A stretch of DNA of 64,000 nucleotides from Escherichia coli (GTDB lineage Bacteria; Pseudomonadota; Gammaproteobacteria; Enterobacterales; Enterobacteriaceae): the NCBI RefSeq assembly GCF_051903065.1, contig NZ_CP178438.1. One strand, written 5' to 3'. The number at the start of each line of letters is the position of its first letter. Position 1 is the stretch's first letter. Positions 53,701 through 56,700 of the stretch are shown piece after piece. A program made the position numbers.

Positions 53701-56700
53701 ATCCGCACGGATGATGAGCGCACCCACCGGTACCATTACGACAGTCAGCACCGGCTGGTGCACTACACGCGGACACAATATGCAGAGCCGCTGGTCGAAA
53801 GCCGCTATCTTTACGACCCGCTGGGCCGCAGGGTGGCAAAACGGGTATGGCGACGTGAACGGGACCTGACGGGCTGGATGTCGCTGTCACGGAAACCGCA
53901 AGTGACCTGGTACGGCTGGGATGGCGACCGCCTGACCACGATACAGAACGACAGAACCCGCATCCAGACGATTTATCAGCCGGGGAGCTTCACACCACTC
54001 ATCAGAGTTGAAACTGCCACCGGTGAACTGGCCAGAACGCAGCGCCGCAGCCTGGCGGATGCCCTTCAGCAGTCCGGCGGTGAAGACGGTGGCAGTGTGG
54101 TGTTCCCGCCGGTGCTGGTGCAGATGCTCGACCGGCTGGAAAGTGAAATCCTGGCTGACCGGGTGAGTGAGGAAAGTCGCCGCTGGCTGGCATCGTGCGG
54201 CCTGACGGTGGAGCAGATGCAAAACCAGATGGACCCGGTGTACACGCCGGCGCGAAAAATCCACCTGTACCACTGCGACCATCGCGGCCTGCCGCTGGCG
54301 CTTATCAGTGCGGAAGGGGCTACAGAATGGTGCGCAGAATACGATGAATGGGGCAACCTGCTGAATGAAGAGAACCCGCAACAGCTGCAGCAGCTCATCC
54401 GCCTGCCGGGTCAGCAGTATGATGAGGAGTCCGGCCTGTATTACAATCGCCACCGCTATTATGACCCGCTGCAGGGGAGGTATATCACTCAGGATCCGAT
54501 TGGGCTGAAGGGGGGATGGAATTTTTATCAGTATCCGTTGAATCCGGTTCAGTATATAGATTCAATGGGACTGGCATCAAAATATGGACACTTAAATAAT
54601 GGCGGATATGGAGCGAGACCCAACAAACCGCCTACGCCCGATCCAAGTAAATTGCCAGACATAGCGAAACAATTAAGACTGCCATATCCTATTGACCAGG
54701 CCAGTAGTGCGCCTAATGTTTTCAAAACATTCTTCAGAGCATTAAGCCCTTACGACTACACACTGTATTGCAGGAAGTGGGTAAAACCAAATCTGACTTG
54801 TACGCCACAGGATGATCCCCAGTATCCAGGGATGGATACAAAGACAGCAAGTGATTACCTGCCACAGACAAATTGGCCAACAACTCAATTACCACCAGGA
54901 TATACTTGTGCAGAACCCTATTTATTCCCAGACATTAATAAACCCGATGGGCCAGCAACAGCAGGGATAGATGATTTGGGTGAAATTTTAGCTAAAATGA
55001 AACAGAGAACATCGAGAGGAATAAGAAAATGAAAAGAGTTTTGTTCTTTTTGCTGATGATATTTGTTAGTTTTGGTGTTATAGCTGATTGCGAAATACAA
55101 GCTAAAGATCATGATTGTTTTACTATTTTCGCTAAGGGTACTATTTTTTCCGCGTTTCCTGTCTTAAATAATAAAGCCATGTGGAAATGGTATCAGAATG
55201 AGGACATCGGTGAGTATTATTGGCAAACAGAACTGGGTACATGTAAAAATAATAAATTCACACCAAACGGGGCGAGACTCTTAATTCGCGTCGGGTCACT
55301 ACGCCTTAATGAAAATCATGCCATCAAAGGAACGTTGCAGGAGTTGATAAATACAGCAGAAAAAACGGCGTTTCTCGGCGATCGGTTTAGAAGTTATATA
55401 AGAGCGGGTATCTATCAAAAAAAGAGCAGTGATCCAGCTCAGTTGTTGGCAGTCCTTGATAATTCAATCATGGTTAAATATTTTAAAGATGAGAAGCCAA
55501 CTTATGCTCGAATGACAGCACATCTCCCGAACAAAGATGAGTCTTACGAATGTTTAACAAAAATACAGCATGAACTGCTTCGTAGTGAAGAAAAATAAAA
55601 CATCTTCCTGAGAGAATAAATTAACCATTCGGGAAAACATGTTCTTAATGGATATCCAGGTACACCAGAAGGTCGATTTGGAAAAATGGATTCCGATGGT
55701 AAGAATATCATATATTCTGAATGTAATGTTTTACCCACAACTTTTGAGATTCGATAGGTGTAGAACATGAGAAACTCACTAATATTACTTATTATGATAT
55801 TGTTTACAATATCACACTCAGTATTTGGAAAAGAAAATCCAGTGGAAATTTTAGTAAATAGTTGTGAAATGGCTTTGGAATTATCATATGTTTACATTAA
55901 ATATGTATACGGGAAAGAAAAAGCAGAATTTCAGAAACCATATAGTATTACAGATGACAATAATTGTTGGAAAATCGAGGGAAAACAACCGAAGACTTTA
56001 GGAGGAAATTTTACAATACTAATAGCGAAAAAAGATGGGCAAGTGTTGAATGTAATACACACGAAATAATCCACTGTACAGTCGATTCAAATATTTTACC
56101 AAGGTGTGTTTCGTAACAATTTTGTGTACAATATGACTCTACATATCGACGAAAAAACCACTTGATTTGACAGGAACACATTCAAAAAAATTTCTTTTTT
56201 TCATTTCAGGAGCGATTTTCATCTGTTACTTGAAGTATCTGTGAGATTAAGTGACTCCCCCTAACGTCGTACTAAATAGTAATTACTGGCCATACCGGGA
56301 GCAGTATTCGGCGCTCCCCACATGCAGCAGAATAACCGCATCAGCCAGGGAAAGATCATCAAAAGTTCACTTTTTGCACTAAATAATTCGCATTTTATGT
56401 TTAAAAATTGAGATATTCCTTATTACCTAAAGCTGTTTTTTATTGCTTATACATGATCAAATACTCCTTACATAATTAAGGAGAACAAAATGGAACTTAA
56501 AAAATTGATGGAACATATTTCTATTATCCCTGATTACAGACAAGCCTGGAAAGTGGAGCATAAATTATCGGATATTCTACTGTTGACTATTTGTGCCGTT
56601 ATTTCTGGTGCAGAAGGCTGGGAAGATATAGAGGATTTTGGGGGAACACATCTCGATTTTTTGAAGCAATATGGTGATTTTGAAAATGGTATTCCTGTCC

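Follow-up and report, generated by a model that had tools for sequence, protein, structure and literature searches.

The best-described relatives of the locus considered here are the Rhs polymorphic toxins whose shells have been solved, Photorhabdus Rhs1/Tre23, Pseudomonas protegens RhsA and Aeromonas TseI, which combine a YD shell, a plug with two DPxGL-type motifs 17 residues apart and an Asp in the second of them, a variable tip and a downstream immunity gene. All of these elements recur in the rhsC gene, and in the ybfC gene that follows it, in a 64,000-nucleotide stretch of Escherichia coli DNA from contig NZ_CP178438.1 (assembly GCF_051903065.1), the whole of which is called the window below. 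We argue that the region is where a polymorphic toxin of the ordinary E. coli Rhs type carries its toxin and immunity parts. The three solved proteins are further characterized by proven autocleavage, an N-terminus with prePAAR, transmembrane (TMD) and PAAR parts, Eag chaperones and tips that act in the cytoplasm, whereas the N-terminus of RhsC is short and only PAAR-like, neither vgrG nor eag is linked to the gene, the second motif has a Ser for Pro, and the immunity protein is predicted to be exported.

Closest in sequence are ybfO and ybfC of E. coli K-12, which are near-identical to the genes of the window and display the same ATGA-type overlap; there, however, the tip is an orphan, while in the window, in O157:H7, O55:H7 and others it sits on a full-length rhsC. 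The latter arrangement has been described for enterohaemorrhagic E. coli (EHEC) O157:H7 EDL933 as RhsC/RhsCI (z0847 fused with z0851; z0853), where the same tip was analyzed in silico and no domain was found (PMC7216683). The tip and YbfC sequences as such are thus already known. The VipE-like function that the same study derived from a weak threading match (PMC7216683) is, however, unsupported by the present structure searches.

Two further groups of systems invite comparison. In the periplasm-acting type VI effector-immunity pairs Tae/Tai, Tge/Tgi, Tle/Tli and Tlde1 the immunity protein goes to the periplasm (PMC6730261, and as is generally known), as is predicted for YbfC, but no sequence or fold similarity to any of them was seen, and these toxins are cargo effectors, whereas the ybfO-type tip is Rhs-encapsulated and has no invariant His, Ser or Glu. 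The orphan arrays that arise by C-terminal displacement (Jackson 2009, PMC2935791; Poole 2011, PMC3150448; Koskiniemi 2014, PMC3967940) are organized like the present locus, with a main tip, what is left of another toxin next to an orphan immunity gene, an insertion sequence (IS) and an immunity fragment, and in them, too, the same tip can be orphan or loaded depending on the strain; from these arrays the locus does not differ in kind, and it is a textbook example of them.

The ybfO-type tip and its partner YbfC

We have little doubt that the module in the window is the ybfO/ybfC Rhs toxin-immunity module. Its tip agrees with the C-terminus of the K-12 pseudogene ybfO (b0703) in 151 of 152 residues, the junction motif DSMGL included, with P82 (Ser in K-12) as the sole difference, and the open reading frame (ORF) downstream agrees with K-12 YbfC (b0704) in 183 of 189. 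The core that carries the tip is complete. Residues 1-1247 of RhsC match the NCBIfam equivalog RHS_core (NF041261) over model positions 1-1261 of 1261 with 2635.7 bits (cut-off 2000), YD repeats are recognized in eight stretches (TIGR01643, E=6.8e-44) as well as by Pfam RHS_repeat, and the match to the Rhs-associated core domain stops precisely at L1247. An earlier note on this DNA, which had described a GC-rich core followed by QYIDSMGL and then by an AT-rich tip of about 150 codons, was accurate in this respect: the guanine-plus-cytosine (GC) content, at 0.616 in the core, is down to 0.430 over the 152 codons of the tip, 0.370 in ybfC and 0.312 farther downstream, against 0.514 for the whole window. 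Its reading of the whole as a classic Rhs toxin/immunity layout is likewise borne out by the RHS_core match, the tip and the co-inherited YbfC.

The ATG of ybfC overlaps the TGA of rhsC as ATGA (55029-55032), which suggests that the translation of the two genes is coupled. The 189-residue product also has the signal-peptide-like N-terminus that the earlier note had ascribed to it, with a hydrophobic run directly after MKR and a hydropathy maximum (mean Kyte-Doolittle value 2.99 across 15 residues) at aa 4-18. An N-terminal hydrophobic segment is present in 15 of 15 aligned YbfC homologues and at eight further loci, and in all the aligned homologues it is preceded by a basic residue at the start of the protein. 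The homologues extend down to 29-34% identity, and 22 positions remain invariant, C30 and C175 among them. Pfam holds no family for YbfC, and scans of YbfC and of the members of its alignment with NCBIfam, PADLOC and PHROGs were likewise negative.

In every locus with downstream DNA, a YbfC homologue lies directly 3' of the tip, either overlapping it or a few bases away. The loci in question are those of the window, K-12, a contig of GCA_041984925.1 with two tandem pairs, Delftia, Phytobacter (2), Acidovorax, Ralstonia, Burkholderia diffusa, Paracidovorax and two E. coli-like contigs of metagenome-assembled genomes (MAGs); in our locus numbering they are, besides the window and K-12, L003 (twice), L004, L006-L009 and L011-L014. 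Since the immunity genes of polymorphic toxins are defined, in operational terms, as small downstream ORFs that are strictly co-inherited, we predict YbfC to be the immunity protein. Transcripts of both rhsC and ybfC have been detected in Shiga toxin-producing E. coli (STEC), at levels that differ between STEC groups and are higher in those associated with haemolytic uraemic syndrome (HUS) (PMC6033998).

The tip itself can be divided into a Pro-rich, weakly conserved linker (residues 1 to ~37) and a conserved domain of ~115 residues (~38-152), which follows the pattern SPYDYxxYCxxW ... C ... PG.D.KTP.DY.P ... P.GY.C..PYYFP[DE] ... A.A[DG].DD ... R.RK. Across the 24 sequences of alignment A3, P59, Y62, C66, W69, P107, C112, A130 and D134 are invariant and S58, Y60, D61, Y65, C76, D94, P97, G109, P115, F118, R151 and K152 nearly so, while no His, Ser or Glu is invariant. 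The tip is hydrophilic, with a grand average of hydropathy (GRAVY) of -0.82 and no stretch of 15 residues that averages above 0.53; Pro makes up 14.5% of it, and its isoelectric point (pI) is 9.08.

A word-indexed search with the tip returned relatives from the Enterobacteriaceae only, at 66-99% identity, and a HMMER profile run against 1.84 billion representatives yielded 27 proteins at E<=0.001, including relatives that are 32-48% identical to the tip of the window. All relatives from this profile scan that retain upstream sequence are joined to the end of an Rhs core. When one genome from each of 100,044 species was scanned, nine tip loci came to light, in Phytobacter (2), Acidovorax, Ralstonia, Burkholderia diffusa, Paracidovorax and three short MAG contigs; the family also occurs in Delftia, and amino-acid identities in other genera range from 32 to 76%. 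As far as these sequences allow it to be judged, the family is restricted to Rhs proteins of Enterobacteriaceae and Burkholderiales. The three MAG contigs (L006, L007 and L010; 1.4-2.4 kb) come from bins named Candidatus Nanosynbacter, Flavobacterium psychrophilum and Erysipelotrichia. In L006 and L007 the E. coli tip, with an amino-acid identity of 98-99%, is accompanied by ybfC, and both contigs are almost certainly mis-binned Escherichia DNA in public MAGs; L010, with a tip match of 71%, is probably mis-binned enterobacterial DNA.

That the tip has no recognizable domain, as the earlier note had remarked, agrees with the profile and structure searches. Neither the tip nor any of its aligned relatives has a counterpart among the families of Pfam, NCBIfam, PADLOC and PHROGs; sequence-profile searches of the PDB with the tip and YbfC families gave best values of E ~1, which is the noise level; and structure searches with the tip model gave no fold match, a VipE-like one included. 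Modelling of the tip by AlphaFold2 depended on the input, nine close sequences giving a predicted local distance difference test score (pLDDT) of 48 and 24 diverse sequences a mean of 64, with residues 61-120 at 80-86. The 45 new "STox" groups of a 2026 survey of Salmonella type VI secretion system (T6SS) toxins (PMC12994826) lie outside this family comparison. Rhs tips of unknown function are common (bioRxiv 10.1101/2025.05.08.652813), so that a tip without a known family is by itself unsurprising. We class the tip family as an uncharacterized toxin-domain family within the Rhs polymorphic toxins.

Some types of activity were considered individually. Given its hydropathy (GRAVY -0.82; 15-residue maximum 0.53), the tip is unlikely to be a helical pore-former, and the absence of an invariant His, Ser or Glu from alignment A3 makes a Cys/His or Ser hydrolase unlikely. 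The tip also reads YD-x5-RK, which resembles the "YDx5HR" motif of colicin-M-like proteins, but positions 67 and 68 vary within the family, and the resemblance was discarded.

The junction between core and tip

The earlier note had seen QYIDSMGL where a second DPxGL would normally be found and had called the junction atypical, which suggested to it a recombined or novel tip. The second motif is not missing, however, and the junction is no sign of recombination damage. Rhs proteins contain two DPLGL motifs 17 residues apart (Jurenas et al. 2021, PMC8636562), and the gap between DPIGL and DSMGL in RhsC is exactly 17 residues, with P1238 kept upstream of DSMGL. The second motif is therefore present and departs from DPxGL solely by a Ser for Pro at its second position, whereas D1243 and the Gly-Leu pair are kept. 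In Photorhabdus Rhs1 the Asp of the second motif is catalytic, as the D1338N exchange at the equivalent position eliminated C-terminal cleavage (PMC8636562), and we accordingly predict D1243 to be the catalytic Asp and cleavage to occur after L1247.

Nor is the Ser a peculiarity of this strain. K-12 ybfO has the identical DSMGL at its junction, and among the 17 family members that include the junction, DPxGL is found in nine, DSxGL in six and DAxGL in two. To judge from these alignments, DSMGL is a tolerated natural allele and not a lesion or recombination damage, and DSxGL and DAxGL can be regarded as natural variants of the Rhs cleavage motif. Moreover, divergence from the K-12 rhsC core starts at nt 54547, five codons ahead of the Asp, and similarity ends at nt 54561. 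It follows that DSMGL is part of the exchangeable module and moves together with the tip. This has a practical side, because at least one published pipeline cuts Rhs proteins in silico solely at DPxG[LWF] (bioRxiv 10.1101/2024.02.26.582050); as DSMGL falls outside this definition, pipelines limited to it would miss or mis-cut a tip that is common in E. coli.

Where the tip may act

The explanation that fits these data best, and which we hold to be moderately probable as a whole, is that a ybfO-type tip on a full-length rhsC acts in the periplasm, with YbfC as its immunity protein. The YD-repeat shell of RhsC, for which the window offers a full RHS_core match, would enclose the C-terminal tip, as has been established for the family, and the aspartyl autoprotease of the C-terminal plug could then cut after L1247. 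Delivery to neighbouring bacteria would proceed, most likely on the spike of a T6SS by way of the short PAAR-like N-terminus, as the literature on this class of Rhs proteins leads one to expect. Once freed, the 152-residue tip would fold in the periplasm of the target, probably with a C66-C112 disulfide, and damage the envelope, while the exported YbfC of the producer and its siblings would bind and neutralize it, as the strict synteny and the ATGA coupling suggest.

Considered separately, the periplasm is the probable site of action of the tip; that its molecular target lies in the cell envelope is our guess. The predicted export signal on every YbfC homologue and the invariant Cys pairs in both partners suggest that neutralization, and hence intoxication, takes place in the periplasm. 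The residues concerned, C66 and C112 in the tip and C30 and C175 in YbfC, are compatible with disulfide bonding in this compartment, and the idea that T6SS toxins can be oxidized by the DsbA of the target cell comes from PMC5792426.

Several observations weigh against this explanation. E. coli K-12 is not known to have a T6SS, and yet it has kept the module. The YbfC signal peptide is assigned from sequence features alone, the Pfam PAAR_motif reaches E=0.21 over aa 2-20 of RhsC only, which is below significance, and no vgrG, eagR or other T6SS gene is found in the flanks of rhsC (kdpFABC-ybfA and ybgA-phr). The moderate confidence of the AlphaFold2 model (mean pLDDT 64) turns the absent fold matches into weak evidence. 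The literature searched for ybfO and ybfC, in which no characterization of either turned up and hence no match to a characterized toxin/immunity pair such as the earlier note had named as refuting its reading, contains no results on toxicity, secretion, cleavage or binding. Finally, PAAR-linked Rhs effectors are reported to act nearly exclusively in the cytoplasm (bioRxiv 10.1101/2024.02.26.582050), so that a periplasmic tip would be an exception. As to the genetic context, the unlinked rhsC falls into the class of Rhs proteins described by Ma et al. as "neighbourless", as summarized in PMC6730261, and E. coli Rhs-CT proteins of the class of RhsC are said in the same source to bear a PAAR motif.

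A first alternative is that the toxin works in the cytoplasm, for instance as a nuclease or by inhibiting translation, and that the hydrophobic N-terminus of YbfC is incidental or a mere membrane anchor. The tip would then resemble the majority of Rhs tips; presumed RNase and DNase tips occur on this core type in E. coli (PMC6730261), and the basic pI of the tip, 9.08, would also fit. Yet the export signal has been kept in every YbfC homologue across two bacterial orders, and even an uncleaved anchor would, with its positive N-terminus, still put the YbfC domain in the periplasm. Considering also that the Cys pairs of both partners are invariant and that the tip matched none of the nuclease or other cytoplasmic toxin families, we regard a cytoplasmic toxin as unlikely. 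The module might instead be an evolutionary relic, with the tip undelivered or inactive and ybfC persisting as an orphan immunity gene or as a hitch-hiker in a recombination-prone locus. Remnants indeed abound at this locus, ybfO is annotated as a pseudogene in K-12 and carries Ser82 at a position that is always Pro in the close relatives of alignment A1, and the majority of E. coli have the tip as an orphan that lacks a delivery domain (2528 genomes with the K-12-type rhsC tip and ybfB, out of 3517 with the module). On the other side stand the intact, full-length rhsC of the window, the preservation of the tip at >=95% nucleotide identity across thousands of genomes, the invariant residues that are retained at 32-48% identity in Burkholderiales with the partner always present, and the loading of the same module onto rhsB in strain ST2747, all of which make a relic quite unlikely in our eyes.

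That the tip is directed against eukaryotic hosts, or works inside the cell as a regulator of the toxin-antitoxin type, we consider very improbable. The VipE-like role in vesicle traffic that was proposed in silico (I-TASSER, template modelling (TM) score 0.574; PMC7216683) and the higher expression of rhsC and ybfC in HUS-associated STEC (PMC6033998) would be in line with a host target, and Rhs orphans of Salmonella can act as toxin-antitoxin modules (PMC7043789). The structure searches, however, gave no VipE-like or other fold, strict co-inheritance with a partner gene downstream is what marks out antibacterial polymorphic toxins, and an exported partner would be unable to neutralize a cytoplasmic toxin in a toxin-antitoxin arrangement.

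The tip points to a small toxin family without known fold or activity, whose immunity protein, predicted to be exported, speaks for a target in the periplasm, unusual as this would be among Rhs tips. One can go further and propose that the ybfO-type tip founds a new periplasmic, disulfide-stabilized toxin family, unlike others in fold and activity and borne on the "neighbourless" Rhs class, with YbfC as a new periplasmic immunity fold; this we see as possible, if tentative. Were it true, it would give a function to two "y-genes" of K-12. At the very least, the analysis assigns a testable role to the uncharacterized genes ybfO and ybfC, a pair found in roughly two out of three complete genomes of E. 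coli, O157:H7 included. Since both K-12 derivatives and BL21 carry ybfC, a toxicity assay of the tip in a laboratory strain could be falsely negative unless ybfC is deleted.

Distribution, recombination and neighbouring remnants

At thresholds of >=80% coverage and >=95% nucleotide identity, the tip with ybfC is found in 3517 of 5426 complete E. coli genomes (~65%). This recurrence, together with the relatives in other genera, indicates that the arrangement of tip and ORF is not due to chance. The K-12-type rhsC tip with ybfB is present in 2528 of the complete genomes, from which we conclude that most carriers of the module show the orphan arrangement of K-12. The ranking was sampled at even intervals, and of 58 rows with full coverage in this sample, 13 were annotated "RHS element core protein", meaning full length, and O157:H7 and O55:H7 were among them; by this sample, roughly a fifth to a quarter of the carriers look like the window. 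The O157:H7 genomes are 99.3-99.4% identical to the module in nucleotide sequence, and their annotation names an "RHS element core protein" and ybfC.

The relation to K-12 is easily followed by BLAST, in which positions 50001-54561 of the window correspond to the K-12 rhsC core and 53527-55637 to the orphan ybfO-ybfC. In K-12 the tip sits on a 5'-truncated core fragment downstream of rhsC-ybfB, whereas the window has it at the end of a full-length rhsC and lacks ybfB, the duplicated core fragment and the tip that rhsC bears in K-12. C-terminal displacement and the "reloading" of orphans are a known route (PMC2935791, PMC3150448, PMC3967940), and the relation between the window and K-12 would be as expected from it, no direction being implied. 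The two K-12 core copies, with 42 and 23 differences that are evenly spread, are too alike for the crossover point between rhsC-type and ybfO-type sequence to be resolved. The suggestion of the earlier note that the tip is recombined or novel thus stands in its first half, for the position of the tip relative to K-12, but not in its second, since the sequence is that of ybfO in 151 of 152 residues and occurs in ~65% of E. coli. As to the comparison with rhsC alleles of other strains that it had proposed, K-12 rhsC has another tip, with ybfB, and the tip of the window had already been listed on the rhsC of O157:H7 (PMC7216683).

Two features of the K-12 locus (L001) may be recorded here. Tip residue 82 of ybfO (7221-8654) is Ser, whereas Pro is invariant at this position in the window and in the close relatives of alignment A1 (D81-P82); the Ser may represent drift in an unexpressed orphan. 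The K-12-type RhsC tip (6106-6777), which displaces that of the window and whose partner is the small protein YbfB, is rich in Cys, with 10 in the ~150 residues after DPLGL, and it may be that this tip, too, acts outside the cytoplasm.

The module is not confined to rhsC. In E. coli ST2747 (NZ_CP007393.1; 2243-7512 of our locus L005) the same tip with its DSMGL, a YbfC-like gene and the NTF2 orphan are found at the rhsB locus, in the nikR-yhhJ interval, where a long array continues with DUF6258, pentapeptide, NTF2, yibA and sel1 immunity genes or fragments. The module therefore moves between rhs elements.

The features of the window are listed in the table. The gene order around rhsC is kdpFABC - ybfA - rhsC - ... 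- ybgA - phr, and at the identical locus of NZ_CP083585.1 RefSeq labels the two genes of the module "RHS element core protein" and "protein YbfC". Near the N-terminus, the autocleavage motif of Rhs proteins of the T6SS is PVxxxxGE (PMC8636562; bioRxiv 10.1101/2024.02.26.582050); the stretch of RhsC that corresponds to it (aa ~47-62, window 50950-51000) has Ala at the position where Glu is expected.

Table. Coordinates, in the window, of the rhsC-ybfC module and of the features downstream of it
Feature	Position	Strand	Remarks
rhsC, full-length Rhs element core protein with ybfO-type tip	50833..55032	+	single uninterrupted ORF, 1399 aa
DUF6531 region of RhsC	50968..51201	+	aa 46-123, Pfam E=3.1e-17; preceded by short PAAR-like N-terminus (aa 1-45)
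Rhs-associated core domain (aspartyl-autoprotease plug)	54340..54573	+	aa 1170-1247; TIGR03696 model 1-76/76, E=7.7e-23
First motif, DPIGL	54493..54507	+	aa 1221-1225
Second motif, DSMGL, predicted autocleavage site (after L1247)	54559..54573	+	aa 1243-1247
Toxin tip, 152 aa	54574..55029	+	aa 1248-1399 of RhsC; GC 0.430
ybfC, predicted periplasmic immunity protein, 189 aa	55029..55598	+	183/189 identical to K-12 YbfC
YbfC signal-peptide-like N-terminus	55029..55085	+	MKR, 16-residue hydrophobic run, then VIA/DC
C-terminal remnant of older displaced toxin tip, 45 codons (…GYPGTPEGRFGKMDSDGKNIIYSECNVLPTTFEIR*)	55620..55757	+	from translation
Orphan immunity gene, 100 aa, signal-peptide-like N-terminus	55767..56069	+	RefSeq "NTF2 fold immunity protein" at identical locus
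ISAs1-like ISEc1 (H-repeat) transposase, frameshifted	56490..57625	+	two ORFs; aligns with K-12 ybfL/ybfD
YibA-like HEAT-repeat gene, 3' fragment, 85 aa	57638..57895	+	NCBIfam PRK09687 E=3.2e-24, model 202-283/285 only

The region after ybfC is littered, in the typical way, with displaced tips and immunity genes. For the 45-codon remnant Pfam gives DUF4329 at E=0.21 only, which is not significant. The remnant and the NTF2 orphan always occur together, in 847 complete E. coli genomes, and in the loci whose annotation was inspected (the NZ_CP083585.1-type locus and ST2747) the pair comes directly after a ybfC-type gene. The YibA-like fragment adjoins the frameshifted ISEc1 transposase; an intact yibA is found in the rhs array of ST2747, and the fragment is probably another immunity-gene remnant.

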